Below, piece by piece: positions 770-50,172 of a stretch of DNA of 64,000 bases; position 1 is the first letter of the stretch, and the number at the start of each line of letters is the position of its first letter. This DNA comes from an uncultured Clostridia bacterium. GTDB lineage: Bacteria; Bacillota; Clostridia; Christensenellales; Borkfalkiaceae. The stretch spans positions 265 to 64,264 of the forward strand of contig CANREC010000002.1 in the NCBI GenBank assembly GCA_947629535.1. Direction: 5' to 3'. The position numbers and the translations under genes were made by a program. Below the pieces are notes generated by a model that saw only the letters and a program-made list of their open reading frames with translations, did not search any database and was not told the DNA's origin.

Positions 770-1960
770 ATGAAGATCAACCGCAATTTCTTAAATCTGA
801 AAGATTCTTACCTCTTTGCGACCGTCGGGGCCAAGACGGCCGCCTATCGGAAGGCTCATCCCGAAAAGGAGATCATCCGTCTCTCCATCGGCGACGTTAC
901 GCGTCCGCTCGCGCCCGCCGTCATCGGCGCCATGCACAAGGCAGTCGACGATATGGCGAGGAGGGAGACCTTTAAGGGCTATGCGCCCGACCAGACCTGC
1001 TACGGCTATGACGCTCTTCTCGATTCCATCCTCGGGAGCTATGCGCGGAAGGGGGTCACCCTCGAAAAGGGGGACATCTTCATTTCCGACGGCGCAAAAT
1101 CGGACTGCGGCAACATCCTCGACATCCTCTCGACGGACAACGTCGTCTTGGTGCCCGACCCTGTCTATCCCGTCTATCTCGATACCAACATCATGGCGGG
1201 AAGAAAGATCCTCTTTGCCGACGCGAACGAGGGAAACGGCTTTCTTCCTATGCCCGACAGAACGGTCAAAGCGGACATCGTCTATATCTGTTCGCCCAAC
1301 AACCCGACGGGCGCGGCGTATACGAAGGAACAGCTCAAGGAATGGGTCGCCTATGCGCTCGAGAACGATGCGCTCATCCTCTATGACGCGGCTTACGAAT
1401 ATTTTGTCACCGACGAACGCCTTGCCCGCAGCATCTATCAAGTGGAAGGGGCGAAGGACTGCGCTATCGAGATCTGCTCCTATTCCAAGACGGCGGGCTT
1501 TACGGGCGTCAGATGCGGCTACACCGTCGTTCCGAAACAGCTCGTAAAAGACGGAGCTTCCTTGAACCGCCTCTGGGCGAGAAGGCAGTCCACAAAGTTC
1601 AACGGGACTTCTTACATCACGCAGATGGGGGCAGCGGCCGTTTTTACCGAAGAGGGGGAGAGGCAGATCTCGGAAAGTTTGGATTACTACAGGGGGAACG
1701 CAAAGATCATCTCCGATGTCCTCGATGACCTCGGCATTTGGTACACGGGCGGCAAAAATTCGCCCTATATCTGGATGAAGTGCCCCAACAATATGGACAG
1801 TTGGACCTTCTTCGATCTCCTTTTGGAGAAGGCGAACGTCGTCGGCACACCCGGTTGCGGGTTCGGGAAGAACGGAGAGGGTTTCTTCCGTCTTACCGCC
1901 TTCGGCACCCACGAGAATACGACAGAGGCGATGCGCAGGATCGCAGCGCTCCTGAAATAA
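770..1960 (+). CDS. dapL: LL-diaminopimelate aminotransferase (DapL type)
   Basis: 396 aa. N-terminus MKINRNFLNLKDSYLF and PLP-lysine region SYSKTAGFTGVRCGY match DapL-family aminotransferases. Confidence 0.85.
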   Translation: MKINRNFLNLKDSYLFATVGAKTAAYRKAHPEKEIIRLSIGDVTRPLAPAVIGAMHKAVDDMARRETFKGYAPDQTCYGYDALLDSILGSYARKGVTLEKGDIFISDGAKSDCGNILDILSTDNVVLVPDPVYPVYLDTNIMAGRKILFADANEGNGFLPMPDRTVKADIVYICSPNNPTGAAYTKEQLKEWVAYALENDALILYDAAYEYFVTDERLARSIYQVEGAKDCAIEICSYSKTAGFTGVRCGYTVVPKQLVKDGASLNRLWARRQSTKFNGTSYITQMGAAAVFTEEGERQISESLDYYRGNAKIISDVLDDLGIWYTGGKNSPYIWMKCPNNMDSWTFFDLLLEKANVVGTPGCGFGKNGEGFFRLTAFGTHENTTEAMRRIAALLK

Positions 1961-1969
1961 GAGAAAGTT

Positions 1970-3466
1970 ATGGAGAATCAATCGAAAAGCGCAGGCGTCT
2001 TGTGTCACATCTCTTCCCTTCCCGGGAAGTACGGGATCGGGAATTTGAAGGACGCTGCGAAGTTTGCGCCCATGCTTGCGAGGAACGGCGTCAAGTATTG
2101 GCAAGTTCTGCCCCTCGTGCAGACAGGGTACGGCGACAGTCCGTATCAATCGGTCTCCTGCACGTCGGGGAATCCCTACTTTATCGATCTTGATGAGTTG
2201 GGACGGGCGGGGCTGCTCACACGGAAGGAACTCAAGGACCTCCGCGACCGCTACAAGGGCATGCCCATCGATTACGGCGTCCTCTACAGCGAACGCTATG
2301 CAACGCTGAGGCTCGCCTTTTCCCGTTATGCTTTTGATAACGACGGGTTCCGCGCCTTTGTCAAGAAGGGCGCGTTCGAGGACTATGCCCTGTTCATGAC
2401 TGCAAAGACGGTCTACGGCGGGACCTTTCAGGACTGGGATGAACCTCTGAAACGGCACACGCCCGAGGCGCTCGAGACGCTCCGCACCGAACATCACGAG
2501 GAATATCTCTTTTGGCAGTTCGTGCAGTACATGTTCCGCAAACAGTGGGACGAATTGCATGAGGGCTGTGCGAAACTCGGCATCCGTCTCATCGGCGATA
2601 TCCCGCTCTACGTCGCCTATGACAGCGCGGACGTATGGGCGCACCCCGAGCTCTTCCGCTTGGACGGCGACCTCAAGCCCGTCAAAGTCGCAGGAGTCCC
2701 GCCCGATTATTTCTCGGAGACGGGGCAGCTTTGGGGCAATCCCGTCTATGACTGGAAGGCGCACGCCAAGGAGAACTTTGTTTGGTGGACGGATCGTCTG
2801 CGGGCGGCGCTTTCTACCTATGATCTCGTCCGCATCGACCATTTCCGCGGCATCGACCGTTACTATGAGATCGACGCAGACGCAGAGAACGCCATCGGCG
2901 GAAGGTGGGAAGAGGGGCCCAAGGAACGCCTCTTCGGCGGTATCGGAAGGGAAGAACGCAGTCGCATCATCGCCGAGAATCTCGGTGTTGTCGACGAAGG
3001 CGTATGGTCTCTTCTCAGAAAGACGGGTTTCCGCGGGATGAAAGTCCTGCTCTTTGCCTTCGACGGCAATCCCGATAACGAGTTCCTTCCCAAGAACATT
3101 CCCGCGAACAGCGTCTGCTACACGGGGACGCATGACAACGACACCGTGAAGGGATATGTCGATTCCCTTGCGGCGGAGGATTTCATTCTTCTTCGCGCAA
3201 GGCTCGCGATGGCGCTCGAGGAGAGCGGCGTGGAGATGCGTCTCCGCAAGAACGGAGAAAATTTCCCCGACGCGTTCATCCGCCTCGCCCTCGCCTCGAA
3301 GGCCGAACTTGCGATCATTCCCATACAGGACATTTTGGGGCTCGGGAACGAGGCCCGCATGAACCTTCCAGGGACGCAGGGCGGAAACTGGCTGTATCGT
3401 CTCGAGGGACCCGTCGGGCGTGCTATGGCAAAATACAAAAAATTGATAAAAATTTATCGGAGGTAA
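1970..3466 (+). CDS. malQ: 4-alpha-glucanotransferase (amylomaltase, GH77)
   Basis: 498 aa. Motifs GVLCHISSLPGKYGIG, RIDHFRG and YTGTHDND are present. Confidence 0.9.
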   Translation: MENQSKSAGVLCHISSLPGKYGIGNLKDAAKFAPMLARNGVKYWQVLPLVQTGYGDSPYQSVSCTSGNPYFIDLDELGRAGLLTRKELKDLRDRYKGMPIDYGVLYSERYATLRLAFSRYAFDNDGFRAFVKKGAFEDYALFMTAKTVYGGTFQDWDEPLKRHTPEALETLRTEHHEEYLFWQFVQYMFRKQWDELHEGCAKLGIRLIGDIPLYVAYDSADVWAHPELFRLDGDLKPVKVAGVPPDYFSETGQLWGNPVYDWKAHAKENFVWWTDRLRAALSTYDLVRIDHFRGIDRYYEIDADAENAIGGRWEEGPKERLFGGIGREERSRIIAENLGVVDEGVWSLLRKTGFRGMKVLLFAFDGNPDNEFLPKNIPANSVCYTGTHDNDTVKGYVDSLAAEDFILLRARLAMALEESGVEMRLRKNGENFPDAFIRLALASKAELAIIPIQDILGLGNEARMNLPGTQGGNWLYRLEGPVGRAMAKYKKLIKIYRR

Positions 3467-3471
3467 CTTTT

Positions 3472-4074
3472 ATGGCAGAAAAGAAAGGATTCTTTGCGGA
3501 ATTCAAGGCGTTCATCGCGCGGGGCAATGTCATCGACATGGCCGTCGGCGTGATCATCGGCGGTGCGTTCAGTGCGATCGTCACCGCGCTCACGAACCAG
3601 ATCCTGATGCCCATCATCAACTGGATCCTGTTCGCGATCACGGGCGGTCAAGGTCTTGAGGAAGTCTACACCTATCTGCATCAGGCGTATGTGCTTGATG
3701 AAACGGGCGTGGCGACGACGCAGATCGATCTTGCAAATTCCATCTATATCGACTGGGGCGCTTTCATCACGGCCATCATCAACTTCCTTCTCATTGCCCT
3801 CGTGCTTTTCCTCATCATCAAGGTCATCAACCATGTCCATGAGAATGCCGAAAAGCTCAAGACGGTGTACGATCCTCTGACCAAGGAAGAGGTCAAGGCA
3901 CTCCGCAAGGAAGGAAAATCTTCGGAAGACATCTTGGCAGCCGCAAAGGAAAAGCAGGCCAAGCTCGACGCTGAGGCGGCGGAAGCTGCGGCAAACGCGC
4001 CCGCACCCGCTCCCACGACCGACGAACTTCTGACGCAGATCCGCGACCTTCTTCAGGCGCAGGCGGAGAAATAA
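3472..4074 (+). CDS. mscL: Large-conductance mechanosensitive channel, unusually long (200 aa)
   Basis: N-terminal FKAFIARGNVIDMAVGVIIGGAF signature and two TM helices. It has a long loop and an Ala/Pro/Glu-rich C-terminal tail. SD GGAGG lies upstream. Confidence 0.9.
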   Translation: MAEKKGFFAEFKAFIARGNVIDMAVGVIIGGAFSAIVTALTNQILMPIINWILFAITGGQGLEEVYTYLHQAYVLDETGVATTQIDLANSIYIDWGAFITAIINFLLIALVLFLIIKVINHVHENAEKLKTVYDPLTKEEVKALRKEGKSSEDILAAAKEKQAKLDAEAAEAAANAPAPAPTTDELLTQIRDLLQAQAEK

Positions 4075-4095
4075 ACGGGAGACGCAATAGGCTCA

Positions 4096-4602
4096 ATGGG
4101 ATTTTTCGGTTTCGGAAGAAAAAAGCGCCCGCAGGGTCCCGCATTTGCGGAGGCGGAGCGCCAGATCAGAAAGCTCTGCGATAGTCTTGAGATCAAGGCG
4201 AGCGCAGAGAAAAAGGAAAACGGCGTAAGCTTTGTGTCGACGGATTTTACCGTCCTCAGTCATACCGCCGAGCGGTTTGACGTCGACTATTCCTATTATC
4301 CGAAGAACGGGCATACCAATCTCACCGTCTATGTCTACTTCGGCGAAAAACATGCCACTGAGGAGACCTTGCGGCTCGTCAACGACTTCAATCGCAAGAG
4401 CAGCTATTGGATGGCATGTATCGAGACGGAGACCAACATCCCATATTTGGGATTTGCGGCGTCCGTTTCCGATCCCGACCCCGCGGACATCATGCGCCAT
4501 GTAGATTGGCTCATGCGTTTCTTGCCCGCAACGGGGAACAGGGACGTCTTTTTGCGGCTCCTCGAACCCGACCCGACGGAAGATCCGAAACAGGAGACAT
4601 AG
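4096..4602 (+). CDS. Hypothetical cytoplasmic protein (possible YbjN-like fold, weak call)
   Basis: 168-aa ORF with SD GGGAG upstream, followed by a terminator. No diagnostic motif recognised. Confidence 0.6.
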   Translation: MGFFGFGRKKRPQGPAFAEAERQIRKLCDSLEIKASAEKKENGVSFVSTDFTVLSHTAERFDVDYSYYPKNGHTNLTVYVYFGEKHATEETLRLVNDFNRKSSYWMACIETETNIPYLGFAASVSDPDPADIMRHVDWLMRFLPATGNRDVFLRLLEPDPTEDPKQET

Positions 4603-7577: not shown

Positions 7578-8955
7578 CGGCCGCATGACAAAATATCCTA
7601 TGCCCGTGCAGGCGCCTGAGGAAAGGGTCGGAAATTTCAGCGAGGTCGCCCTCGGTTACGACGAGGAGACGGCCAAGTTCGAGGCAGAACGCTGCATCCA
7701 CTGCAAGAACCGTCCCTGTGTCGGGGGATGTCCCGTTTCGGTGAGGATCCCCGACTTTATCGAAAAGATCTCCGAAGGGGCGTTCGAAGAGGCCTATCAG
7801 ATCATTTCCGAGAGTTCGGCCCTTCCCGCTGTCTGCGGAAGAGTTTGCCCGCAGGAAAAACAATGTGAGAAATTCTGCGTCCGCGGCATCAAGGGCGAAC
7901 CCGTCGGCATCGGCCGCCTCGAGCGGTTTGCGGCGGATCATCACTATAAACATGCGCCGAAGGCGGAAAGGCCCGTCTCCAACGGAAGGCGGGTCGCAGT
8001 TGTCGGCTCGGGCCCCGCAGGCCTTGCCTGTGCGGGAGACCTTGCCCGCCTCGGGTACGATGTCACGGTGTTCGAGGCGCTCCACACGGCGGGCGGCGTG
8101 CTCGTCTATGGCATTCCCGAATTCCGCCTTCCCAAGCGGATCGTGGAAAGAGAGGTCGAGCATCTCGTATCTCTCGGCGTGAAGGTGGAGACGAACAGTG
8201 TCATCGGGCGGCTGTATACGGTGGAAGAGCTCAGAACTGAACTCGGATTTGAGGCCGTCTTTCTCGGCACGGGGGCGGGCCTTCCCCGATTCATGGGGAT
8301 CAAGGGGGAGAACGCGAAGGGCGTTTTCTCGGCCAACGAATACCTCACCCGCGTCAACCTCATGAAAGCATACGAAGAGGACAGCGAAACGCCCGTCTAC
8401 CGCGGCAAAAAGGTCACGGTCGTGGGGGGCGGCAATGTCGCCATGGATGCGGCGAGGACGGCAAGGCGGCTCGGCGCAGACGTCACGGTCATCTACCGCC
8501 GCGGCGCGGAGGAACTTCCCGCAAGGCGCGAGGAAACGGAACATGCCATGGAAGAGGGGGTGAAATTCAAGTTTCTCACCAATCCCGTAGAGATCCTCAC
8601 GGACAGCCAAAACGCTGCCGCCGCGCTCAGATGCGTGGAGATGGAGCTCGGCGCCCCCGACGAGAGCGGCAGAAGGCGCCCCTGCGTGAAGGAAGGGAGC
8701 GAATTCACCGTTGAAACGGACTGCGTCATCATGGCGCTCGGGACTTCGCCGAATCCGCTCATCCAAAAGACGACGGCGGGACTTGAAACGAGACCGCACG
8801 GGGAAATTCTCGCCGATGAAAACGGAAAGACCTCTCTTGAGGGCGTCTTTGCGGGGGGAGACGCCGTGACGGGCTCTGCGACGGTCATTCTCGCCATGGG
8901 AGCAGGCAAGGCCGCGGCAAGATCCATCGACGAATATTTGAGGAGCAAAGCATGA
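7570..8955 (+). CDS. nfnB: NADPH-dependent glutamate-synthase-small-chain-like oxidoreductase (NfnB)
   Basis: ATG at 7570 with SD AAGGAGG, overlapping the nfnA stop. Two Cys clusters (CIHCKNRPCV, CGRVCPQEKQCE) and VAVVGSGPAGLACA dinucleotide folds are present. Confidence 0.85.
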   Translation: MYNGRMTKYPMPVQAPEERVGNFSEVALGYDEETAKFEAERCIHCKNRPCVGGCPVSVRIPDFIEKISEGAFEEAYQIISESSALPAVCGRVCPQEKQCEKFCVRGIKGEPVGIGRLERFAADHHYKHAPKAERPVSNGRRVAVVGSGPAGLACAGDLARLGYDVTVFEALHTAGGVLVYGIPEFRLPKRIVEREVEHLVSLGVKVETNSVIGRLYTVEELRTELGFEAVFLGTGAGLPRFMGIKGENAKGVFSANEYLTRVNLMKAYEEDSETPVYRGKKVTVVGGGNVAMDAARTARRLGADVTVIYRRGAEELPARREETEHAMEEGVKFKFLTNPVEILTDSQNAAAALRCVEMELGAPDESGRRRPCVKEGSEFTVETDCVIMALGTSPNPLIQKTTAGLETRPHGEILADENGKTSLEGVFAGGDAVTGSATVILAMGAGKAAARSIDEYLRSKA

Positions 8956-10622: not shown

Positions 10623-11360
10623 ATGGCGTATTGCAACAGAAAAACGTATGAACTGAGATATTCGGATTTCGATTTCAAGGACGAGCTGTCGCTCACGTCG
10701 CTCCTCGCCCTCATTCAGGAATCGGCCTGCAAGAGCGCCGACGAGCTCGGATTCGGTTATGATGACTTAAGACCCTTGGATTTCGGCTTTCTGACCGTGA
10801 ATACTTACTGTAAGTTCAGCCGTCCGATCTCGCTCGGGGAGAATATCACCGTCGAAACATGGCCGCTACCGCCCCGTCACTATATCTTTGAGAGGGATTA
10901 CCGTGTTCTTTCGGGCGAGGAGACCGTCGCCGCGCTGGCGTCGAGGTGGTGCCTCGTGGATCTCAAGACGTTTTCGCTGCTGTTGCCCGAAAAGATGGGG
11001 GAAGTCCATACAAATTGCCCTTACCGCAACGAAAAGACGGTGGAAGTTCCCTCGTGGAGGATCCCAAAACTGACTGAGGGAAGGGAAATTTACCGCATGC
11101 GGGTGGGTGTTTCCGATTGCGATCACTATCTGCACGCCAATAATACGCGTTATCTCGATTTTTTCATGGATTGTTTCTCGATGGAAGAGCTCAAAGAGCG
11201 CAGGATCGTTTCCTTCCAGATCTCCTATGAAAAACAGGCAAAGGAAGGAAAAGAGATCGTATTTTTGCGGCAGGACTTTGACGGAATGTCCATCTGCGAG
11301 GCAAGATCGGAAGGGGAACTTTTGACGCAGTTTCGCGTGGAATGGGAGGCGAAAGCGTGA
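10623..11360 (+). CDS. Acyl-ACP thioesterase
   Basis: 245 aa. Double hot-dog FatA/B-like pattern (YELRYSDFDFKDELSL..., DCDHYLHANNTRY). Confidence 0.8.
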   Translation: MAYCNRKTYELRYSDFDFKDELSLTSLLALIQESACKSADELGFGYDDLRPLDFGFLTVNTYCKFSRPISLGENITVETWPLPPRHYIFERDYRVLSGEETVAALASRWCLVDLKTFSLLLPEKMGEVHTNCPYRNEKTVEVPSWRIPKLTEGREIYRMRVGVSDCDHYLHANNTRYLDFFMDCFSMEELKERRIVSFQISYEKQAKEGKEIVFLRQDFDGMSICEARSEGELLTQFRVEWEAKA

Positions 11361-11824
11361 GGATCGACAAGCCCGCCGTTCTCAAATATGTCAAGTTCTG
11401 CAAAAAGCTGTTCATTCTCTTCAGCTGTGTTGCGATCCCCGTGACGATGATCTGTCTGATCTTCGCCGTCACGGGCTATGCGGCGTTTTGGTTCATCACT
11501 CCCGCGATCGCGATCGTCTATCTCACCGTCTATGCCCTCTATGCGCTGTATGTTTCGATGGGAACGGTCATCGGCATCGAGACGACGGACAAGGTCGTCC
11601 ATGTAAGGACAAAGCGCAGGACATACACCTATGACGTCAAGAGGGGATGCAAAAAGGTCAAGACGACAAAACGGAAATTTGTCTGTACGTTCGAAACGCA
11701 GGATTCGCGCGATAAATTCATCTTTTACAGAAAAGTCTTGTTTGCGCGTTCCTATGAGGACCAATTCACTTTGGAGGAGATCTCTTCCTTCTATCCTTCC
11801 ATTCAAGAAAAAGACAACGATTGA
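11357..11824 (+). CDS. Hypothetical 2-TM membrane protein
   Basis: GTG at 11357 overlaps the upstream stop (GTGA), with SD GGGAGG 7 nt upstream. Two hydrophobic helices are followed by a basic soluble tail. Confidence 0.6.
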   Translation: MRIDKPAVLKYVKFCKKLFILFSCVAIPVTMICLIFAVTGYAAFWFITPAIAIVYLTVYALYALYVSMGTVIGIETTDKVVHVRTKRRTYTYDVKRGCKKVKTTKRKFVCTFETQDSRDKFIFYRKVLFARSYEDQFTLEEISSFYPSIQEKDND

Positions 11825-12092: not shown

Positions 12093-13172
12093 ATGGACAA
12101 AAAAGTATTTCTGACACTGGAAAACGGCCGCGTGTTCGAGGGGAGATCCTTCGGCGCGGAACGGGAATCGATCGGCGAGCTCGTTTTCACCACGGGAATG
12201 ACGGGGTATCTCGAGACGTTGACCGATCCGAGCTATTTCGGCCAGATCGTCCTGCAGACCTTTCCGCTCATCGGCAACTACGGCGTGATCCCCGAGGATC
12301 TCGAGAGCGGCAAATGTCGGGCAAGCGGATACATCGTCCGCGAGAGATGTGAATTTCCCTCCAACTTCCGCTGTCAGATGACGATCGGGGAGTATCTGAA
12401 ACTCGAGAACATCCCCGCCGTCTACGGCGTCGACACCCGAGAGATCGCGAAGATCGTCCGCGAGGCGGGGGTCATGAACGCGGCGATCACCTTTCAGCCG
12501 CTCACGGACTTCGGGAAACTGCGTTCCTACAGGGTCAAAAACGCCGTCCTGTCCGTTACTCCCGACGAGGTCTCCGTTTCGGATGAGAAGGGGGACTGCA
12601 CCGTCGTTCTCTATGATTTCGGCTCCAAGCGCAATATCGAACGCGAACTTCTCAGAAGAGGATGCCGCGTCATCACCGTTCCCGCGACCTATCCCGCCGA
12701 GGAAGTCCTACGCAGAAAGCCCGACGGCGTCATGCTCTCCAACGGCCCCGGGGACCCCTCGGAAAATGTGGAGATCGTCAAAAATATCCGCCGTCTCATC
12801 GGGAAACTTCCCATCTTCGGCATCTGCCTCGGGCACCAGCTCTTCGCGCTTGCGATGGGGGGCGAGACGCGCAAGATGAAATACGGCCACCGCGGCGCAA
12901 ATCAGCCCGTCAAGGACCTTGCGACGGGGAAGGTCTATATCACTTCCCAAAACCATGGCTATGAGGTCGTGTCCGAAAGCCTTGCGGCAGGGCGGCTCTC
13001 CTTCATCAATTGCAATGACGGCACCTGTGAGGGCGTCGATTACCCCTCGGTGAACGCCTTTACCGTCCAGTTCCATCCCGAAGCTTGCGGCGGTCCGCTC
13101 GACGCAAACTTCCTCTTCGACAGATTCATCGGGGCCGTCCGTGCGGCAAAGGGGGAAGCGAAATGCCGCTGA
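12093..13172 (+). CDS. carA: Carbamoyl-phosphate synthase small (glutaminase) subunit
   Basis: 359 aa. Motifs FTTGMTGY, GICLGHQ and HGYE...FHPEA, with SD GGAG upstream. Confidence 0.92.
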   Translation: MDKKVFLTLENGRVFEGRSFGAERESIGELVFTTGMTGYLETLTDPSYFGQIVLQTFPLIGNYGVIPEDLESGKCRASGYIVRERCEFPSNFRCQMTIGEYLKLENIPAVYGVDTREIAKIVREAGVMNAAITFQPLTDFGKLRSYRVKNAVLSVTPDEVSVSDEKGDCTVVLYDFGSKRNIERELLRRGCRVITVPATYPAEEVLRRKPDGVMLSNGPGDPSENVEIVKNIRRLIGKLPIFGICLGHQLFALAMGGETRKMKYGHRGANQPVKDLATGKVYITSQNHGYEVVSESLAAGRLSFINCNDGTCEGVDYPSVNAFTVQFHPEACGGPLDANFLFDRFIGAVRAAKGEAKCR

Positions 13173-16100
13173 GAAAGGATATCAAAAAAGTGCTCGTCAT
13201 CGGCTCGGGACCCATCGTCATCGGTCAGGCGGCCGAATTCGACTATGCGGGAGCGCAGGCCTGCCGCGTTCTCAAAGATGCGGGCATGAACGTCGTGCTC
13301 TGCAATTCCAACCCCGCGACCATCATGACGGACAGGATGCTCGCCGACGAGATCTATCTCGAACCCTTGACCGAAGAGAGCTTGAAACGCATCATCGTCA
13401 AGGAACGGCCCGATTCGCTCCTCGCATCCCTCGGGGGCCAGACGGGGCTGACGATGGGCTGCAAGCTCGCAAAGAGCGGTTTCTTGGATGAATGGGGCGT
13501 AAAACTCATCGGAACAAAGCTCGACGCTATCGATAGGGCGGAGGATCGGGAGCTCTTCAAGGAGACTATGCAAAAGATCGGCATGCCCGTCGTTCCGTCG
13601 GACATCGCCTATACCGAGGAGGACTGCGTGAAGATCGCAGAGGGGCTCGGCTATCCCGTCATCGTCCGTCCCGCGTTTACGCTCGGCGGAGCGGGCGGGG
13701 GCGTCGCCCATGACAAGGAGGAGCTCCGTCTCATCTCCCACAACGGCCTCATGCTGTCGCCCATCCGTCAGGTCCTCGTCGAAAAATACATCGGCGGTTG
13801 GAAGGAGATCGAGTTCGAAGTTCTCCGCGATGGAAAGGGGAACGTTATCACCGTCTGCTCCATGGAGAATGTCGATCCCGTCGGCATCCATACGGGGGAT
13901 TCCGTCGTCATCGCGCCCGCCGTGACGCTATCCGACAAGGAATATCAGATGCTCCGCACGGCGTCCCTCGACATCATCACCGAGCTCGGCATCGAAGGCG
14001 GATGCAACTGCCAGTTCGCCCTGCGTCCCGACAGTTTTGAATTTGCCGTCATCGAGGTCAATCCCCGCGTCTCGCGTTCTTCGGCTCTCGCGAGCAAGGC
14101 GACGGGATATCCGATCGCAAAGGTCGCGACGAAGATCGCCCTCGGCTATACGCTCGACGAGATCAAAAACGACGTCACGGGCAAGACATACGCCTGTTTC
14201 GAGCCCGCGCTCGACTACGTTGTCGTCAAACTGCCCAAATGGCCCTTTGATAAATTTTTGTACGCGGGACGCAACCTCGGCTCCCGCATGAAGGCGACGG
14301 GGGAAGTCATGGCGATCGGCTCTTCCTTCGAGCAGGCGATCATGAAGGCCGTCCGCGGCGCCGAAATATCCATCGATACTTTGGATCACCCGAAGTTCGA
14401 GAAGATGTCCGCGGATCAGCTCCGCGCCGAGATCGCCAAGATGACGGACGAGCGCATCTATGCCGTGTATGCGGCGCTCAAGAAGGGCGTCTCCGTCGAT
14501 GAGATCTATGCCGTCACAAAGATAGACGAGTGGTTCCTCAGCAAGTTCCTGAATCTCATCGGATATGAAAAACGCATCGCGGGGAGAAAGATCACCCGTG
14601 CGGAATATCTCGAGGGCAAGCGTCTCGGGTTCCCTGACAGGGCCATCGAAAGGATCTCAGGGCAAAAATGTCCCGCCCACAGAAAGGCTGCCTTCAAGAT
14701 GGTCGATACCTGTGCGGCGGAGTTCGGCGCCGAGACGCCTTACTTCTATTCGACCTATGACGATCCTGCGCACGACGAGGCCAAGCACTTTGTCGCGGCC
14801 TCCGGGAAGAAACGCGTCATCGTCATCGGCTCGGGACCCATCCGCATCGGGCAGGGCATTGAATTCGACTATTCTTCCGTCCACTGCGTCTGGACGCTGA
14901 AACAGCTCGGCTACGAAGTCATCATCATCAACAACAACCCCGAGACGGTCTCCACCGACTTCGATACGGCGGACAGGCTCTACTTCGAATCCCTGACGCC
15001 CGAGGACGTGCAGAACGTCATCGATGTGGAAAAGCCGTACGGCGTCGTCATCACCTTCGGCGGGCAGACGGCCATCAAGCTTTGCGGATATCTCGCCCAA
15101 GCGGGCGTCCGCATCCTCGGCACGAGCGCAGACAGCGTGGATATGGCCGAGGATCGGGAGCGGTTCGACGAACTGTTGGAACGGTTCCGCATTTCACGGC
15201 CGAAGGGGCTCACCGTCATGACGAAAGAGGAGGCGGTCAAGGCCGCGGAAACGCTTGGGTATCCCGTCCTTCTTCGCCCGAGCTATGTCATCGGCGGGCA
15301 AAACATGACGATCGCCTTCACAGAGAACGACATTTCCCGCTACATGGACGTCATTCTTGCCCAACATATCGAGAATCCCGTTCTCTGCGACAAGTATCTG
15401 ATGGGCAGCGAACTCGAGGTGGACGCCATTTCAGACGGCGTCGATGTGCTCATCCCCGGCATCATGCAGCATGTGGAGCGTGCGGGCGTGCATTCGGGCG
15501 ATTCCATCGCCGTGTATCCGCCCTATCATCTGTCGGACGCGATGAAAACGCGCATCGTCGAAGTTTCCACGCAGCTTGCTTTAGAGTTAAAGACGAAGGG
15601 CCTCATCAATATTCAGTATCTCATCTACCAAAACAGGCTCTATGTCATCGAGGTCAATCCCCGCGCCAGCAGGACCATTCCATACATCTCCAAGGTCACG
15701 GGTGTGCCCATGGTGGAACTTGCGACAAAGATCATGGCGGGAGCAAAACTCAGAAAGCTCGGGTTCGGCACGGGCCTCTATCCCGATTCGCCCTATGTCG
15801 CCGTCAAGGTCCCCGTGTTCTCCTTTGAAAAACTCAATGACGTCAACTCACAGCTCGGCCCCGAGATGAAGTCCACGGGCGAGGTCCTCGGCATCGGAAA
15901 GACCATCGAGGAAGCGCTCTTCAAGGGGCTCCTCTCGGCGGGTTTCAAGATGTGCCACCCCACAAAGGAGCGGCCTGTCGGCGTATATTTCACCGTCAAC
16001 GACCAAGACAAGCCAGAACTTGTTTCCATTGCAAAGAAGTTTGCCGATCTCGGCTGCCGCCTCTATGCCACCGCGGGGACGGCGAAGGTCATTTCCGACC

Positions 16101-17188
16101 TCGGCGTCGACGTCACGATCGTGGAACGCCTCAAGGCAACCAAACAGGTCTGCAAGCTCATGGACGAGGGGAAGATCGATTACATCGTCTATACCGGCAA
16201 GACGGACGTCGATTCCATACAGGACTATATCGAACTGCATCATCACGCCATTCTGCTCGGCATCACGGTTTTGACCTCTCTCGACACGGCGAACGCCCTC
16301 TGCGACATCGTCGCGAGCAAATTTACCGAGGACAATACAGAGCTCGTTGACATCAACCATCTCCGCACGGAAAAGACCAAGCTCGAGTTTACCAAGATGG
16401 AATCGTGCGGCAACGACTTCATCTTCTTCGAGGACATGGAGGGGAAGATCACCTGCCCCGAGTCCTTGGCCGTCAATTTCGTCAACCGACATTACGGTAT
16501 CGGCGGGGACGGCATCGTCATTCTGAGCAGGTCCAATGTCGCAGATGCGAAGATGCGCATTTTCAACCAGGACGGCTCGGAGGGAATGGTCGCGGGCAAT
16601 GCCATTCGCTGTGCCGCAAAGTACCTCTATGAGAACGGTTTCGTTCAAAAGGAGACGATGAGGATAGAGACGATGGGGGGCGTGATGGAGCTCAAGGTAT
16701 TCTCCTTCGGCGGCGTCGTCACGTCAGCGAGCGTGGTGCTCGGGGCTCCCGCGATGCGGGAACTTCCCGCGGGGGACCTGCCCGTCAGCGATCCGCAGAC
16801 GGAGAGAGCGGCGCTCGTCGAGCTCGGCGGGCTGTTCTGCATCCTCTTTTGCGACAGGGTCGAGAAACTCTCCCTGAAGGATCTCGCCGAGAGGATCGAA
16901 GAGGACAAAAACTTCAAGGAAAAGCCCAATCTTGCCGCTGTGCGCGTCGTCAACGGGGCGACCATCAAGATGCGCAGCTGGGAACGCGGCAACGGAGAGA
17001 CGTATTCGAGCGGCACGGGCGCTGCCGCGGCCGCGTATGCGTGCGTGAAGTACGGGTTCTGTAGGCCCGATACCGACATCACCGTCAAGGTGCGCGGGGG
17101 TGACCTCATTGTGCACGATTCCTCCGACGGGACCGTCACGCTGACGGGCAATGTCAAAAAGATCTATGAAGGGAAGGTGGAATTCTGA
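13163..17188 (+). CDS. carB: Carbamoyl-phosphate synthase large subunit fused to a C-terminal DapF-like (diaminopimelate-epimerase-fold) domain
   Basis: ATG at 13163 with SD GGGGGA, overlapping the carA stop. The product is 1341 aa, against about 1070 for a usual CarB. The tail from about 16376 carries GNDF, FNQDGSE and ERGNGET motifs. Confidence 0.85.
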   Translation: MPLRKDIKKVLVIGSGPIVIGQAAEFDYAGAQACRVLKDAGMNVVLCNSNPATIMTDRMLADEIYLEPLTEESLKRIIVKERPDSLLASLGGQTGLTMGCKLAKSGFLDEWGVKLIGTKLDAIDRAEDRELFKETMQKIGMPVVPSDIAYTEEDCVKIAEGLGYPVIVRPAFTLGGAGGGVAHDKEELRLISHNGLMLSPIRQVLVEKYIGGWKEIEFEVLRDGKGNVITVCSMENVDPVGIHTGDSVVIAPAVTLSDKEYQMLRTASLDIITELGIEGGCNCQFALRPDSFEFAVIEVNPRVSRSSALASKATGYPIAKVATKIALGYTLDEIKNDVTGKTYACFEPALDYVVVKLPKWPFDKFLYAGRNLGSRMKATGEVMAIGSSFEQAIMKAVRGAEISIDTLDHPKFEKMSADQLRAEIAKMTDERIYAVYAALKKGVSVDEIYAVTKIDEWFLSKFLNLIGYEKRIAGRKITRAEYLEGKRLGFPDRAIERISGQKCPAHRKAAFKMVDTCAAEFGAETPYFYSTYDDPAHDEAKHFVAASGKKRVIVIGSGPIRIGQGIEFDYSSVHCVWTLKQLGYEVIIINNNPETVSTDFDTADRLYFESLTPEDVQNVIDVEKPYGVVITFGGQTAIKLCGYLAQAGVRILGTSADSVDMAEDRERFDELLERFRISRPKGLTVMTKEEAVKAAETLGYPVLLRPSYVIGGQNMTIAFTENDISRYMDVILAQHIENPVLCDKYLMGSELEVDAISDGVDVLIPGIMQHVERAGVHSGDSIAVYPPYHLSDAMKTRIVEVSTQLALELKTKGLINIQYLIYQNRLYVIEVNPRASRTIPYISKVTGVPMVELATKIMAGAKLRKLGFGTGLYPDSPYVAVKVPVFSFEKLNDVNSQLGPEMKSTGEVLGIGKTIEEALFKGLLSAGFKMCHPTKERPVGVYFTVNDQDKPELVSIAKKFADLGCRLYATAGTAKVISDLGVDVTIVERLKATKQVCKLMDEGKIDYIVYTGKTDVDSIQDYIELHHHAILLGITVLTSLDTANALCDIVASKFTEDNTELVDINHLRTEKTKLEFTKMESCGNDFIFFEDMEGKITCPESLAVNFVNRHYGIGGDGIVILSRSNVADAKMRIFNQDGSEGMVAGNAIRCAAKYLYENGFVQKETMRIETMGGVMELKVFSFGGVVTSASVVLGAPAMRELPAGDLPVSDPQTERAALVELGGLFCILFCDRVEKLSLKDLAERIEEDKNFKEKPNLAAVRVVNGATIKMRSWERGNGETYSSGTGAAAAAYACVKYGFCRPDTDITVKVRGGDLIVHDSSDGTVTLTGNVKKIYEGKVEF

Positions 17189-17793
17189 TGATCCAGAGAG
17201 ATCTCTTATATGAAGAGAGCGCCGTGAGCGCCCGCGCACAGACGGAGACGAAGTTTTACATGTTCTTCTTGGTCCTCGCCATCGTCTGTTTTGTCCTTGC
17301 GGGCATCGTCGCCTTTTTCTCGACCTCATTCATCCCGGGCATCCTTGCGGATGAAGAACTCACGACGATGGGGAAGGTGTTCAACGTCGGGTTCCTCATC
17401 TTTCTCATCCTTGCCTTTTTGGGGAGCGGGTTTGCCTTCTGGCTCATCCGTAAAAAGTTCAATGTCAGTTATGACTATACGTTCGTCGAGGACGAACTCC
17501 GCATCACGAAGGTGTTCAACGGAAGATCGAGAAAGTATTTTGCGACGATCTCGGCCGATTCCGTCCTCAGGATCGGTTGGTGCGAGAAACCGTCCTTTCA
17601 AGACGTCATGCGCGGCCTGAGCGGCAAGCCGCGGTTCCTTACGCCCAACAAGACGCCCGCCGAGGACAAGAGCTTTGTCTATGTGCTCGTCGGCGGCTCA
17701 CTGGGCAAGACGCTCTATATCCTCGAGTGCAGACAGATCTTGTTGGAATATCTCGTACGCAGTGCGGGCATCAATAAATTGGAGCGGGAATGA
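17188..17793 (+). CDS. Hypothetical 2-TM membrane protein with a soluble C-terminal domain
   Basis: 201 aa. The start overlaps the carB stop (TGATG) and the end overlaps the next start, so it is translationally coupled within the operon. Confidence 0.6.
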   Translation: MIQRDLLYEESAVSARAQTETKFYMFFLVLAIVCFVLAGIVAFFSTSFIPGILADEELTTMGKVFNVGFLIFLILAFLGSGFAFWLIRKKFNVSYDYTFVEDELRITKVFNGRSRKYFATISADSVLRIGWCEKPSFQDVMRGLSGKPRFLTPNKTPAEDKSFVYVLVGGSLGKTLYILECRQILLEYLVRSAGINKLERE

Positions 17794-18911
17794 TCTACTT
17801 CGACAATGCCGCCACGACCCGTCCTGACGCGGACGCACTCCGAAAGGCGGCGGAATTTACGACGGAACTTTATTTTAATCCCTCCGCCAAGTACGGCGGG
17901 GGATTTGCCGTTTCCCAAAAGCTCAGCGGCATGCGGGAAAGCCTTCTGCGTACCTTGGGCGGGACGGGAAGATACGACCTCATCTTCACTTCATGCGGCA
18001 CAGAGGCGGACGCCCAAGCCATTTTCTCGTGCGGAAGGCGCGGGAACGTCGTCACGACGGAAGGCGAGCATGCGGCGGTCTATGCGGCGTGTACAGAGCT
18101 CAAAAATCGCGGCGTCGAGCCCCGTTTTGCCCCTTTGGAGCGCGACGGAAGCGTTTCGCCCGAGAGGATCGCGTCCCTCGTGGATGAAAAGACGAGCCTC
18201 GTCGCGGTCGTTCATGTCAACAACGAGACGGGTGCGGTCAACGACATTGCCGCGATCGCAAGGGCGGTCAAGGCAAGGGATCCGCGCACGGTCTTTCTGA
18301 GCGACGGTGTGCAGGCGTACGGGAAATTGCCCTTTTTCCTCCCGCATGAGATCGATCTCTATGCCGTCAGCGCACACAAGATCGGGGGCCTCAAGGGAAC
18401 GGGAGCGCTCTTCAAGCGGAAGGGCCTCTCCCTGCATCCGCTCATCTTCGGCGGCGGACAGGAATCGGGGCTCAGGAGCGGCACTGAGAATACCTTCGGC
18501 ATCGCCGCCTTTGCCTATGCGGCCGAAAAGAAGTTTTTAACGGTCAAAGAGGACTTCGGAAGGCTGCTTTCCTACCGTGAGAGGCTGTTTTCGTTGCTCG
18601 ATCCGTCCATATTTCTCCGTCTCTCGCCCGAGAACGGCTCGCCGTACATTCTGACGGTTTCGGCTGTCGGTATGCGGGGCGAAGTGCTGCAACGGATGCT
18701 CTGGGACAGGGGGCTCTGCGTGGGAACGGGCAGTGCATGCTCCTCCAAAAGCCGTTTCAGCCGCGTTATGACCGCCTGCGGATATAAGGAGAACGTGCTC
18801 GACGGCGTGTTGCGCATGAGTTTTTCTCCCGACACGACTGAGGAAGAGATCGACAGCTCTGCCGAAATTCTCAATTCTGTCGCCAAAGAATATCAAAGGA
18901 ATACACTGTAA
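17790..18911 (+). CDS. Cysteine desulfurase (NifZ/IscS-like, partner of ThiI)
   Basis: 373 aa. PLP-lysine motif SAHKIGG and active-site GSACSS are present. It sits immediately upstream of thiI, as in the Bacillus nifZ-thiI arrangement. Confidence 0.85.
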   Translation: MIYFDNAATTRPDADALRKAAEFTTELYFNPSAKYGGGFAVSQKLSGMRESLLRTLGGTGRYDLIFTSCGTEADAQAIFSCGRRGNVVTTEGEHAAVYAACTELKNRGVEPRFAPLERDGSVSPERIASLVDEKTSLVAVVHVNNETGAVNDIAAIARAVKARDPRTVFLSDGVQAYGKLPFFLPHEIDLYAVSAHKIGGLKGTGALFKRKGLSLHPLIFGGGQESGLRSGTENTFGIAAFAYAAEKKFLTVKEDFGRLLSYRERLFSLLDPSIFLRLSPENGSPYILTVSAVGMRGEVLQRMLWDRGLCVGTGSACSSKSRFSRVMTACGYKENVLDGVLRMSFSPDTTEEEIDSSAEILNSVAKEYQRNTL

Positions 18912-20063
18912 ATGGAACAAGTCATCATCATCCGATATGCGGAAATTCATCTGAAGGGCAAGAACCGCGGCTATTTTGAGCGCGTCTTTGCCAATAATCT
19001 CGAAAAGGCAATGAAGGGTATCCGCCACGAGATCCATCGTACGAGCGGAAGATATCTTGTCGCCGATTTCGATGAGGAGAGAACGGACGAGATCATGCGG
19101 CGCGTCTCGAAGGTGTTCGGCGTGCACTCCTATTCGCTCGGACTTCTCACCGAAAACGACGAGGGCAGCATCTTCGAGGCCGTAAAGCTCCTTGCGCCCC
19201 AAGAGGGCACCTTCAAAGTGCAGACGCATCGCGGAGACAAGCATTATCCGCTCACGTCGATGGAGATCAGCGCCTGTATCGGCGGCAGATTGCTCGATGA
19301 AAATCACAATTTAAGGGTAGACGTCCACACCCCTCAACACACCATCTATATCGACATCCGCGAGAGCGGCAGAGCGCTCATTTTCTGCTCCTTTGCGGAC
19401 GGACTTCACGGCATGCCCGTATCTACCGCGGGGAAGGGACTTCTCCTCATCTCGGGCGGGATCGATTCTCCCGTCGCGGGGTACATGATGGCAAAGCGCG
19501 GCATGACGGTCGGAATGCTCCATTTCCACAGCTATCCGTACACCAACGAGGCCGCCAAGGAGAAGGTCGTCTCGCTCGCAAAAATCTTGTCCGATTACAC
19601 GCTCGTCAACCGTATCACGACGGTGAGCGTCACGCAGATACAGGAAGAGATCCACAGGAAATGCGCCGCCGAACTCAATGTGACGCTTTTGCGCCGTTTC
19701 ATGTTCCGCATCGCCGAGCGGATCGCGAAGTACGAAGGGGACGGCTGTCTCGTCACGGGGGAAAGCCTCGGACAGGTCGCAAGCCAGACGCTCGAGGGGC
19801 TGACCTCGTCCAATGCCGTCGTCAAACTTCCCGTCCTGCGCCCGCTCATCGGATTTGACAAAGAGGACATCATCGAAGTCGCAAAAAAAATCGGTACCTA
19901 CGAGACCTCGACGCTGCCGTACGAGGACTGCTGTACCGTATTTCTTCCCGATTTCCCCGCCATCAAGCCGAAACTTTCCTTCATCGAAGAGGAAGAGGGG
20001 AAACTTGACGTGGACGCCCTCGTGGAAGGGGCGCTTGCGACGCGCGAGGTCATCAAATTTTAA
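18912..20063 (+). CDS. thiI: tRNA 4-thiouridine(8) synthase ThiI (no rhodanese domain)
   Basis: 383 aa. THUMP-type N-terminus (IIIRYAEIHLKGKNR) and PP-loop SGGIDSPVA. Confidence 0.9.
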   Translation: MEQVIIIRYAEIHLKGKNRGYFERVFANNLEKAMKGIRHEIHRTSGRYLVADFDEERTDEIMRRVSKVFGVHSYSLGLLTENDEGSIFEAVKLLAPQEGTFKVQTHRGDKHYPLTSMEISACIGGRLLDENHNLRVDVHTPQHTIYIDIRESGRALIFCSFADGLHGMPVSTAGKGLLLISGGIDSPVAGYMMAKRGMTVGMLHFHSYPYTNEAAKEKVVSLAKILSDYTLVNRITTVSVTQIQEEIHRKCAAELNVTLLRRFMFRIAERIAKYEGDGCLVTGESLGQVASQTLEGLTSSNAVVKLPVLRPLIGFDKEDIIEVAKKIGTYETSTLPYEDCCTVFLPDFPAIKPKLSFIEEEEGKLDVDALVEGALATREVIKF

Positions 20064-43802: not shown

Positions 43803-43849
43803 CTGTTTTTCAAGGGTAAGCGCAAAAATTTTTGCAAAAAAGGAGAAAA

Positions 43850-44659
43850 ATGGGCAGGGTTTTTCCGAAGATCGGCGTTTTCGACAGCGGCATCGGCGGG
43901 CTGACCGTTTTGCGGGAATGTTTTTTTCTCACGCCCGAGGCGGAATATTTCTATCTCGGAGACAACGGCCGCGCTCCCTACGGAAACCGCACGGAAGGGG
44001 AGATCGCAGGGTTTGTCTCGGAGGCGATGGAGACCTTTCTCAAAATCGGCGCCGACGCCGTCGTCCTTGCCTGCAACACGGCGACGGCCGTCTGTATCGG
44101 GGAGATGCGAAAAAAATTTCCCTTCCCGATCGTCGGGACGGAACCCGCCGTCCGTCTTGCGGCCACTGAGTGCAGAAGGGCCCTGATCCTTTCGACCGTG
44201 CGGACGGCAGAGAGCGAACGGCTCGCCGCGTTGATCCGCAGCTGTCCGCAATGTGATTTTTCGGTGCTTCCATGTCCCGATCTTGCGGGAGAAATAGAAC
44301 TTCTTTTCCACCGTGGGGGAGAAATGGGGAATTTCGTCCACCTGATTCCTCCGAAAGGCCGAAACTATGACGGGATCGTGCTCGGATGCACCCATTACGT
44401 CTTTCTGAAGAGGAAAATTGCCGCATTTTACGGCTGTAAGACGTATGACGGCAACCGAGGCGTCGCAGAAATGCTCCGAAAACGACTAAATTTAGGGCCA
44501 ATTGACCACCCCACAAATTATTCAATAAATAGAAATCAAAACATTTGTTTTGAGAAAAATCTAAAAGAAAAGGCTGAAGAGAGGGTGTATTTCCTTGGAA
44601 AATCCAAGGATTTTAATAAATCGGTATTTTTTTCGAACATTTGTTTTAGTCGTTTCTAA
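43850..44659 (+). CDS. murI: Glutamate racemase
   Basis: ATG at 43850 with SD AGGAG. Motifs [18 protein letters not shown] and GCTHY. Confidence 0.9.
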
Positions 44660-48735: not shown

Positions 48736-50172
48736 ATGAAACTTTCCATTCTTGCCGCAGAGGGCGGGGGCGTCCTCAAGGGGACAGATGTTGAGATCTC
48801 CTCGCTCTGCGCAGACAGCAGGGTCGTCGGGGAAGGGGATCTCTTTTTCTGCATCAACGGCACCCGCGAGGACGCCCATAAGTATGCCGCCGAGGCGGAA
48901 CGCAGGGGAGCCGCGGGGATCGTCTGCGAGAGAAAGACGGAGACGAGCCTTCCCTATATCCTCGTGCCCGACAGCAGGCGGGCCATGGCGCACATTGCCG
49001 CCGCCTTCTACGGTCATCCCGAAAAATACATGAAGTTTGTCGGCGTGACGGGAACGAACGGAAAGACGACCGTCACGCACATGCTCAGTTCGGTCTTTGC
49101 GGCAGCGGGGAAAAAGGCGGGGCTCATCGGAACGCTCGGCGCAAAGTTCGGCAAAGCCTTTCTTCCGCCCGCCCTGACGACCCCCGATCCCATCTCGCTC
49201 TTCTCTCTTCTTGCGGGCATGAAGAAGGACAGAACGGAGTACGTCTTTATGGAAGTCTCCGCCCATGCGCTTGCCCTCAAGAAAGATTCCCCGATCGTGT
49301 ACGACGCCGCCATTTTCACCAACCTCACGCAGGACCATCTTGACTTCTTTCCCGACATGCAAGCGTATGGCGAGGCGAAGAGATCGCTCTTTGCACGCTG
49401 CCGTCTCGCGATCCTGAACGGCGACGATCCCTTCTCGGCGGAGATCGCAAAGATCGCTCCAGAGAGCCTCACATACGGGCTCGACGGACCCGCAGACTGT
49501 TTCGCCATGATCGAACAGGAGAGCTTGGCGGGCACGCGGGCGATCCTCAACCTCGAGGACGACATCTGCGAGATCGACCTTCCCATGACAGGACGGCACA
49601 ACGTCTCCAATGCCTTGGCCGCGGCGGCATGCTGCAAGAGGCTCGGCATCGGTATGGACGCCATTGCGGCAGGGCTCTCCGATGTGCATGTGGAGGGAAG
49701 GCTCGAACGCATCGGGACATATCGCGGCGCAGACATCTTTGTGGACTTTGCCCATACGCCCGACGGGCTCGAGAAGTCGCTGAACGCCCTCAGACGGCAC
49801 CTCAAGGGAAAGCTCATCGTCGTGTTCGGGTGCGGGGGCAACCGCGATCGGACGAAACGCCGCATCATGGGCGAGATCGTCGCGAAAAACTGCGATTTTG
49901 CGGTCATTACCTCGGACAATCCCCGCTATGAGGACCCCTGCGCCATCATTTCGGAGATCGAACTCGGCTATAAAAAAGTCAGCCGCAATTATGTCGCCGT
50001 GGAAGAGCGTGAAAAGGCCATCGCCTATGCCATGCAGAAGGTTGGGGAAGGGGACATTGTTCTCGTGGCGGGAAAGGGGGGAGAGACAGAACAGGAGATC
50101 ATGGGCGTCAAATACAATTACAGTGACAAGGCGGTAATAAAGTCGCTCATGGGGAGTGGAAATGCTCAATAG
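48736..50172 (+). CDS. murE: UDP-MurNAc-L-Ala-D-Glu:meso-diaminopimelate ligase
   Basis: GVTGTNGKTT P-loop, and the DNPR motif (TSDNPRYEDP) diagnostic of DAP-adding MurE. Confidence 0.92.
   Translation: MKLSILAAEGGGVLKGTDVEISSLCADSRVVGEGDLFFCINGTREDAHKYAAEAERRGAAGIVCERKTETSLPYILVPDSRRAMAHIAAAFYGHPEKYMKFVGVTGTNGKTTVTHMLSSVFAAAGKKAGLIGTLGAKFGKAFLPPALTTPDPISLFSLLAGMKKDRTEYVFMEVSAHALALKKDSPIVYDAAIFTNLTQDHLDFFPDMQAYGEAKRSLFARCRLAILNGDDPFSAEIAKIAPESLTYGLDGPADCFAMIEQESLAGTRAILNLEDDICEIDLPMTGRHNVSNALAAAACCKRLGIGMDAIAAGLSDVHVEGRLERIGTYRGADIFVDFAHTPDGLEKSLNALRRHLKGKLIVVFGCGGNRDRTKRRIMGEIVAKNCDFAVITSDNPRYEDPCAIISEIELGYKKVSRNYVAVEEREKAIAYAMQKVGEGDIVLVAGKGGETEQEIMGVKYNYSDKAVIKSLMGSGNAQ

Follow-up and report, generated by a model that had tools for sequence, protein, structure and literature searches.

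An in-frame DapF-fold domain without the two catalytic cysteines at the C-terminus of CarB in an uncultured Clostridia bacterium: a degenerate tip of a large fusion clade

Why does the large subunit of carbamoyl-phosphate synthase (CPSase) in an uncultured Clostridia bacterium carry a domain resembling diaminopimelate (DAP) epimerase (DapF), and what could this domain do when both catalytic cysteines have been replaced? The gene in question, carB, lies in a stretch of 64,000 nucleotides (assembly GCA_947629535.1, contig CANREC010000002.1, positions 265 to 64,264 of the forward strand), which is called the window throughout. A single frame without internal stops runs from the ATG at 13163 to 17188 (+) and is translated into 1341 amino acid residues (aa), and in the list of open reading frames (ORFs) the open frame spans 13085-17188. 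The ATG is preceded by a strong Shine-Dalgarno (SD) sequence (AGGGGGAAG), and the stop codon TGA (17186-17188) shares one base with the ATG of the next gene. The CarB portion (residues 1-1071; 13163..16375, +) is made up of two ATP-grasp halves, the oligomerisation domain and the MGS-like allosteric domain. In the NCBIfam profile search, a complete CarB was found at residues 1-1053 (NF003671, 1431 bits vs a cutoff of 599; CarB equivalog TIGR01369, 1396 bits vs 1027), and the Pfam domains in this portion are PF02786 and PF25596, twice each, PF02787 and PF02142. It passes into the tail through the junction ...SKFTEDNTELVDINHLR... (16316..16372, +), a normal CarB C-terminal tail that would act as a tether and contains neither a stop nor an SD sequence; close to it there is a single internal Met, at 16397, and no SD sequence was read in the DNA ahead of that codon. 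The junction motif NTELVDIN.LR, which is present in the window, is nearly invariant in the alignment columns across the fusion family described below. The ORF list, the translation and the lack of an SD sequence at the junction thus agree with the original prediction, made from the letters of the window, that CarB runs without interruption into the tail.

The tail (residues 1072-1341 plus the stop; 16376..17188, +) had been recognised as DapF-like from short motifs, and the family profiles leave this identification standing. The DapF profile TIGR00652 matches residues 1075-1339 with 193-198 bits against a curated cutoff of 114.65 and covers profile positions 2-268 of 270, and PF01678 matches the tail with 134-140 bits against 34.7. 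A phmmer search against all PDB chains matched 17 DapF-family structures, among them 9mro, 8qzy and, as the best, 2otn from B. anthracis (E=1.5e-44). An AlphaFold2 (AF2) model of residues 930-1341, built from 69 homologues, has a mean predicted local distance difference test (pLDDT) score of 88.6 and a predicted template modelling score (pTM) of 0.65, with low confidence at the junction (pLDDT 58-60 over model residues 121-140). Foldseek returned 2otn as the top match to this model, and the first 25 PDB matches are all DapF or O-ureidoserine racemase, with target-normalised template modelling scores of 0.75-0.82 and E values down to 3e-32. The fold comparison, which had been proposed as a check together with the profile search, hence recovers the two-domain, pseudo-symmetric DapF fold. 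The tail is a real in-frame DapF-fold domain fused to a full CarB.

In DapF, the thiolate of Cys73 acts on the L-centre of the substrate and the thiol of Cys217 on the opposite face, and Cys occupies both positions in all canonical stand-alone DapFs that we compared (109/109 at each). In the window, the position of Cys73 is taken by Ala1144 (GCG, 16592..16594, +; 'mvAgn' under 'ksCgn') and that of Cys217 by Ser1283 (AGC, 17009..17011, +; 'yssGtga' under 'qaCgtga'), as found in the phmmer alignments and by re-reading the codons. The GNPH motif reads GGLF (GGCGGGCTGTTC at 16826..16837, +; 'smGNPHav' vs 'elGGLFci'), by which Asn157 has become Gly and His159 Phe, with Pro158 also replaced, and the conserved Glu-Phe of the N-x-E-F motif has become Ala-Ala (16934..16939, +). 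The DAP-binding site, scored as N11, N64, G74, N75, N157, H159, N190, E208, R209, G218 and S/T219, is therefore incomplete: nine of the eleven residues are kept (N11, N64, G74, N75, N190, E208, R209, G218 and T219), and N157 and H159 are gone. Tyr1335 aligns with Tyr268, the dimerisation residue of E. coli DapF, when the offset is taken from the alignment ranges. DapF is active only as a dimer, the E. coli variant Y268A being monomeric and inactive, and no activity was detectable in E. coli DapF C73A/C217A (PMC6061791). Since both acid/base residues and two pocket residues are gone and the C73A/C217A form is inactive, the window domain is not an epimerase of the known kind. Judged from its residues it is incapable of two-base epimerisation, and canonical binding of DAP has probably been lost as well. 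The alignments to solved DapFs thus bear out both the replacement of the two cysteines and of GNPH and the conclusion drawn from it earlier, that this is not a canonical two-thiol epimerase.

The original prediction implied that the fusion was a one-off, and this did not hold. A scan of GTDB with one genome per species and the tail as the query returned 80 loci, which come from metagenome-assembled genomes (MAGs) labelled Clostridia, Christensenellaceae, Candidatus Gallimonas, Candidatus Borkfalkia, Acutalibacteraceae, Oscillospiraceae, Eubacterium sp., Evtepia and Avispirillum. The same in-frame junction was found in 80/80 of the fetched species genomes (Christensenellales and Oscillospirales), and the full window protein aligns through it. 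An internal stop is absent from 79 of the loci, the remaining one (L081) being broken by Ns and a change of frame. Full-length fusion proteins also exist in public collections under the name 'carbamoyl-phosphate synthase large subunit', for example in a cluster of 279 members including RefSeq WP_296967502.1. The survey of relatives for long CarB proteins that had been suggested as a check therefore places the window at the degenerate tip of a large fusion clade. Moreover, metagenome contigs were scanned with the CarB allosteric domain as the query, so that retrieval was free of bias towards the tail. All 15 metagenome loci with an alignable tail rank among the 17 closest to the window; of the other two, one is tail-less and one has a frameshifted tail, and the other 64 classifiable metagenome CarBs stop at about 1065 residues. 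The tail is confined to the CarBs closest to the window and therefore marks one branch of the CarB tree. In the metagenome locus L108, an Ala73-type tail is out of frame after about residue 1198 (from about position 4870 onward), which is either a sequencing error or genuine decay.

Within this clade, the loss of Cys73 is the rule. A set of 82 sequences was drawn from the window, the 80 loci and the MAG contigs L001 and L003. At position 73, 79 of them have Ala, two Gly and one Asp (Ala in 78 and Gly in two of the 81 relatives alone), Cys217 is found in 78/82 and an intact GNPH in 79/82. The combination Ala/Cys/GNPH accounts for 76 of them and Gly/Cys/GNPH for two, and one sequence is Ala/Cys/GDPH; among the database proteins, 100 are Ala/Cys and 21 Gly/Cys. 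When 81 fused tails were compared with the 109 stand-alone canonical DapFs, position 73 (Ala vs Cys) was the only column separating the two groups cleanly, and all eleven residues of the DAP-binding site, with Thr at 219, are equally conserved in both. Ser is almost never found at position 73, while a changed position 217 is always Ser. The change of Cys217 to Ser arose independently elsewhere with GNPH kept (L083, P0004, P0026 and P0039). Purifying selection on the tails of typical members is strong: the ratio of nonsynonymous to synonymous substitution rates (dN/dS) is 0.015-0.15 in closely related pairs, with a median of 0.17 at higher divergence. Compensating catalytic residues were looked for in the Ala73 clade and rejected: the Cys in 'SCGND' is common in canonical DapFs too and is missing from Oscillospirales members, and gains of Tyr are not specific. 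The apparent invariance of Gln65 in the fused tails is an artefact of the retrieval peptide KMRIFNQD, as wider sets show R, Q, K or A. A purely structural role leaves the frozen DAP site of this Ala/Cys parent clade unexplained. Its tail could be a non-consuming sensor of LL-DAP, a one-base enzyme, or a crippled or alternative epimerase.

The window shares Ala73 and the junction motif with this Ala73/Cys217 clade (L005-L079 and others), which is its immediate family, and the Christensenellales members of the clade also share the downstream genes for a membrane protein, nifS and thiI. Unlike the window, typical members have retained Cys217, GNPH and an entire DAP site. The window has lost these together with two other loci, L004 and L046, each from a rabbit-gut MAG. 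Of 101 columns conserved in the family, 15 deviate in the window, 19 in L004 and 17 in L046, the family median being 1. All three have Ser at position 217, have lost the Glu-Phe of the N-x-E-F motif and, by a shared deletion, lack about 10 residues from the C-terminal half of the domain; GNPH is replaced by GGLF in the window, GRQN in L004 and GGHH in L046. A tree of the C-terminal part of CarB joins the window and L004 as sisters and places the pair inside Ala/Cys lineages, therefore the degeneration is derived. Between these two, CarB is 90% and the tail 77% identical, and dN/dS is 0.179 for the tail (bootstrap 0.12-0.26) and 0.05 for CarB; between the window and L046 the tail value is about 0.27, dS being close to saturation. 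For the window and L004, dN is 3.4 times as high in the tail as in CarB, compared with a family median of 2.05. A relaxation of selection was considered on the basis of dN/dS alone and rejected, as the window-L004 tail value of 0.18 lies inside the range of Ala/Cys pairs and only the tail/CarB dN ratio is raised. There is no stop or frameshift in the three tails, which are 63-77% identical. The window is the most decayed known member of the fusion family.

At the other end of the family there are fusions in which both cysteines are present. The fused Cys/Cys protein P0127 (1349 aa) is encoded on a 1.68-Mb contig of GCA_050950425.1, fragments with Cys/Cys domains that reach upstream into CarB were found in P0131, P0136, P0144, P0324, P0358, P0375, P0388, P0395 and P0402, and further Cys/Cys fusions occur in the metagenome loci L101-L106. 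They have the same architecture as the window protein, with the junction after the MGS-like domain, and belong to the same branch of the CarB tree. In contrast to the window, their DapF part is canonical (Cys/Cys and GNPH), and the window tail is only 42-45% identical to them. Several of the fused Cys/Cys domains share 70-73% identity with P0108, a stand-alone DapF encoded directly upstream of a DapL that is 67% identical to the window DapL. This identity to P0108 suggests that the Cys/Cys domain of the fusions is orthologous to the housekeeping DapF and not an old paralogue, and the Cys/Cys fusions are presumably true bifunctional enzymes. In annotation, several stand-alone canonical DapFs (272-298 aa) are named 'carbamoyl-phosphate synthase large subunit' by JGI, and one NCBI MAG record calls a 279-aa DapF 'carB'; these labels were probably transferred from the fusion proteins.

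If the fused domain is inactive in the window, does the cell need another DapF? As had been read from the sequence, profile matches place in the window both DapL, the LL-diaminopimelate aminotransferase making LL-DAP (770..1960, +; TIGR03542, 501 bits; flanked by pyrG and malQ), and a MurE of the DAP-adding type (48736..50172, +; NF001126, 504 bits; DNPR motif at 49915). The claim attached to them, that a functional DapF must exist somewhere, does not follow, in view of LL-DAP walls, DapF2 and the viability of E. coli dapF nulls. LL-DAP is found in the wall of the cultured Christensenella species C. minuta and C. intestinihominis (bioRxiv 10.1101/2020.11.14.383166); therefore DapL followed by MurE could suffice for peptidoglycan, and meso-DAP would be needed only for lysine via LysA, unless lysine is imported. 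In addition, the non-homologous, pyridoxal phosphate (PLP)-dependent DapF2 stands in for DapF in some Firmicutes (PMC9026213), and E. coli dapF nulls grow (GapMind 2026 preprint). A separate DapF would thus not be strictly required. No second DapF homologue was found in the window, including beside its dapL, or in the 83 loci examined, and the Alr-type PLP motif, as looked for in view of DapF2 (alanine-racemase family), is absent from the window. Apart from the tail, a single cofactor-independent gene of the racemase type was seen in the window, that for the glutamate racemase MurI (43832-44656; TIGR00067, 151.9 bits, barely above the cutoff of 146.65), just upstream of mraZ and the dcw cluster.

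On balance, and with only somewhat better than even confidence, we regard the window tail as a pseudo-epimerase that came from the housekeeping DapF, was fused to CarB and has been kept as a structural or regulatory appendage of CPSase. The ordinary diaminopimelate epimerase of the cell would have become joined to the C-terminus of CarB. As the comparison of sequences shows, in the ancestor of the Christensenellales/Oscillospirales clade Cys73 was replaced by Ala or Gly, with Cys217 and the DAP contacts staying under strong constraint, and the lineage of the window, L004 and L046 also lost Cys217, Asn157, His159 and the Glu-Phe of the N-x-E-F motif as well as about 10 residues by deletion. The folded domain would still be needed, the frame being intact in three diverged species with a dN/dS of about 0.18, and this continued selection on an intact, well-folded domain of 270 residues is why a non-catalytic role on CPSase is proposed. 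Carried on a flexible, conserved tether from the MGS-like domain, the tail may stabilise or dimerise the C-terminal region of CarB and influence the assembly or regulation of CPSase. In E. coli, the allosteric domain of CPSase helps to form the tetramer. Because that domain takes part in forming the tetramer, DapF dimerises and the Tyr aligned with Tyr268 is kept, we prefer, with moderate confidence, a dimerising clamp or regulator. The cell would live without an active fused DapF, DapL giving LL-DAP that could be put directly in the wall as in Christensenella. Of the regulatory, scaffold or ligand-sensing module suggested originally, a non-catalytic role is the best remaining reading, while ligand sensing fits the Ala/Cys relatives better, because the window has lost Asn157, His159 and the N-x-E-F Glu.

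Several points weigh against this explanation. The scaffold or regulator role is one that we infer by elimination, and in the AF2 prediction the tail makes no defined contact with the allosteric domain (the linker is of low confidence and the pTM is 0.65). The tail dN/dS is no higher than that of many Ala/Cys pairs. After its burst of change the tail may have settled on a specific function, with a new ligand or chemistry, and the retained N11, N64, G74, N75, N190, E208 and R209 may leave some ligand binding possible.

These last points belong to the alternative that fares best, which we still think unlikely: that the tail of the window, L004 and L046 was remodelled for another ligand or reaction, using Ser1283 or other residues, and works as a sensor or enzyme on CPSase. 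It would account for the way in which otherwise invariant pocket positions changed in a burst and the tail then came under purifying selection matching that of the parent family; half of the pocket is kept, as just listed, and the same fold runs chemistry with one thiol or none in 3-hydroxyproline dehydratase and PhzF, which are among the Foldseek matches. However, the replaced motif differs among the three (GGLF, GRQN and GGHH), which resembles drift more than convergence, and neither a new conserved polar or catalytic residue nor a new operon partner hinting at a substrate was found in them. That the tail is a functionless passenger, persisting only until it is cleanly deleted, is in our opinion a little less probable again. 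The loss of catalytic and binding residues would fit it, as would the rate of protein change in the tail, about 3.4 times that of CarB, and the frameshifted tail of the metagenome relative L108. On the other hand, dN/dS is 0.18 (bootstrap upper bound 0.26), three species are free of stops and frameshifts although their tails are only 63-77% identical, and the fold is predicted with high confidence; the tail is also present in 80/80 genome loci, but as it was the query this does not test its loss. It is very unlikely that the tail is still a weak DAP epimerase in which Ser1283 acts with water or a different base, and that it provides the meso-DAP needed for lysine. In its favour, DapL and a DAP-type MurE are present and there is no second DapF homologue within the window, and Cys-to-Ser forms of the H. 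influenzae enzyme (Koo and Blanchard) reportedly keep trace activity. But both the base and the acid are gone in the window, along with Asn157, His159 and the Glu of the N-x-E-F motif, and the E. coli C73A/C217A enzyme is inactive (PMC6061791). Finally, an artefact in which a missed stop, a frameshift or a chimeric assembly joined two genes has next to no chance of being true, for although the related MAG contigs L001 and L003 each have one in-frame stop in carB, the junction is in the same frame in 80 independent species genomes, 79 of them stop-free, has no SD sequence or start, and is recorded in identical full-length proteins from many assemblies (the 279-member cluster).

The stop in L001 is a TGA (7953-7955) at codon 869, where the window has Gly, and the products were called as 868 + 467 aa; that in L003 is a TAG (7941-7943) at codon 879, where the window has Lys, with products called as 878 + 449 aa. 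Errors in the MAGs or recent pseudogenes probably account for both. For these stops and the many matches of 445-469 aa, programmed recoding or a split carB was considered and rejected, since 79/80 genome loci are stop-free. A word-indexed protein search with the 270-aa tail gave nothing longer than 469 aa among the listed matches, although the collection searched contains full-length proteins including that of the window. Owing to this bias in length, fragments mimicked proteins of about 450 aa with an 'MGS+DapF' organization, and the choice of L001 and L003 was itself an artefact of selection. Two further candidates were dismissed. Apparent stand-alone Ala/Cys DapF-like genes (P0094, 272 aa, 154 blocks) come from scaffolds with N-gaps or contig ends inside carB. 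And P0125 (512 aa, OTCase_N), taken as a fusion of ornithine transcarbamoylase (OTCase) and DapF that would provide a link to carbamoyl phosphate, joins ArgF residues 1-128 to CarB from residue 967 onward and appears to result from a deletion or from chimeric assembly across argF-carA-carB.

With regard to the genetic organization, carA for the glutamine amidotransferase small subunit of CPSase (12093..13172, +; NF009475, 438 bits) overlaps the start of carB by 10 nucleotides. The fusion gene is followed by the genes for a 201-aa membrane protein (17188..17793, +), conserved downstream in Christensenellales relatives, with DUF6106 in the L001 homologue; a NifS/IscS-type cysteine desulfurase (17790..18911, +), for which the best NCBIfam matches are cysteine desulfurases that all stay below their cutoffs (TIGR03402, 257 bits vs 530.75) and whose L001 homologue is an Aminotran_5 protein; and ThiI, the tRNA 4-thiouridine sulfurtransferase (18912..20063, +; TIGR00342, 349 bits). 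The ORF list and the profile matches thus support the packed order predicted earlier (carA, carB-dapF-like, membrane protein, cysteine desulfurase and thiI). In both orders, the usual place of the fusion is at the end of an argJ-argB-argD-argF-carA-carB operon. In the window, the arginine genes upstream of carA are replaced by an acyl-ACP thioesterase gene (PF01643 / PF20791) and a 160-aa ORF without a family match, which lie at 10623-11824; both are also present in L004 and L031, and the thioesterase in L007, L027 and L047. The arginine genes upstream of carA have been lost in the subclade of the window, L004 and L046, although the arrangement is found in some Ala/Cys relatives too. In the Oscillospiraceae MAG L083, whose tail has Ala73/Ser217 and an intact GNPH, a dapL (2992-4218) encoding a product 55% identical to the window DapL lies directly upstream of carA-carB::dapF-like, a rare link in gene order between the fusion and the DAP pathway. 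Rfam gave no match at gathering level in the window, L004, L082 and L083 (101 kb), including the gaps in front of dapL in L083 (615 nt) and in front of carA in the window (268 nt), so no riboswitch or leader was found there. A 780-aa antisense ORF lies over dapL and malQ in the window (791-3133, -) and is probably a chance ORF in DNA of 55% GC; a similar, unannotated 811-aa antisense call lies over carB in L084 and L085.

How does the tail compare with known systems? It has the two-domain fold of canonical DapF (H. influenzae 1GQZ/2GKE, B. anthracis 2OTN and E. coli 4IJZ), but both thiols, Asn157, His159 and the N-x-E-F Glu are missing from it, about 10 residues have been deleted, and it is attached to CarB instead of being free. 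Trans-3-hydroxy-L-proline dehydratase (6R76 and 4K7G) and PhzF belong to the same fold superfamily and have switched chemistry with one catalytic Cys or none; their identity to the tail is 12-16% and their replacement residues (Thr and Glu45) have no counterpart in it, which makes them an analogy only. For the proposed role there are precedents of another kind. Pseudomonas aspartate transcarbamoylase requires an inactive subunit resembling dihydroorotase (DHOase). The partnership of E. coli DapF with RppH is non-catalytic (PMC6061791). By analogy, an enzyme fold kept for assembly or regulation, as in this pseudo-DHOase and in DapF-RppH, may also be what the window tail represents, although these are other proteins with other contacts. 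In literature searches, no paper was found on a CarB-DapF fusion or on a natural DapF without Cys73, and in a paper on C. thermocellum dapF-dapL appears as a separate pair. The combination of CarB and DapF, both well-known families, with one thiol lost across the clade and both in the window, hence appears to be undescribed.

For the parent clade, which has Ala or Gly at 73, Cys217 and a full DAP site and comprises at least 80 species in two orders, we put forward with considerable reserve that it may descend from the housekeeping DapF, be the sole DapF homologue of its genomes and act either as an enzyme with unprecedented chemistry or as a sensor of LL-DAP. If it is an enzyme, this one-thiol module would be a water- or His-assisted epimerase or a deprotonase/eliminase specific for the D-centre. 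If it is a sensor, the non-consuming sensing of LL-DAP would link the supply of a cell-wall precursor to carbamoyl-phosphate synthesis in bacteria with LL-DAP walls. In either case, the doubly substituted copy in the window would represent a lineage that gave up the function of the one-thiol module.

DapF is seen as an essential enzyme and antibiotic target that works everywhere through two cysteines. Across a clade of abundant gut Clostridia, what appears to derive from the housekeeping DapF is joined to CPSase, with the L-specific Cys long replaced while the rest of the active site is frozen in the Ala73 clade, and the window sublineage has lost the second Cys and part of the binding site, yet retains DapL and a DAP-type MurE. 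In lysine-pathway reconstructions, automatic pipelines score such a tail as 'DapF present'. The main interest lies in the family, of which the window is the extreme case. The natural series from Cys/Cys through Ala/Cys to Ala/Ser with a broken pocket lets one ask what a one-thiol DapF does, where meso-DAP and lysine come from or whether they are needed in these bacteria, and whether a domain that was once an enzyme can become a structural or allosteric part of CPSase.

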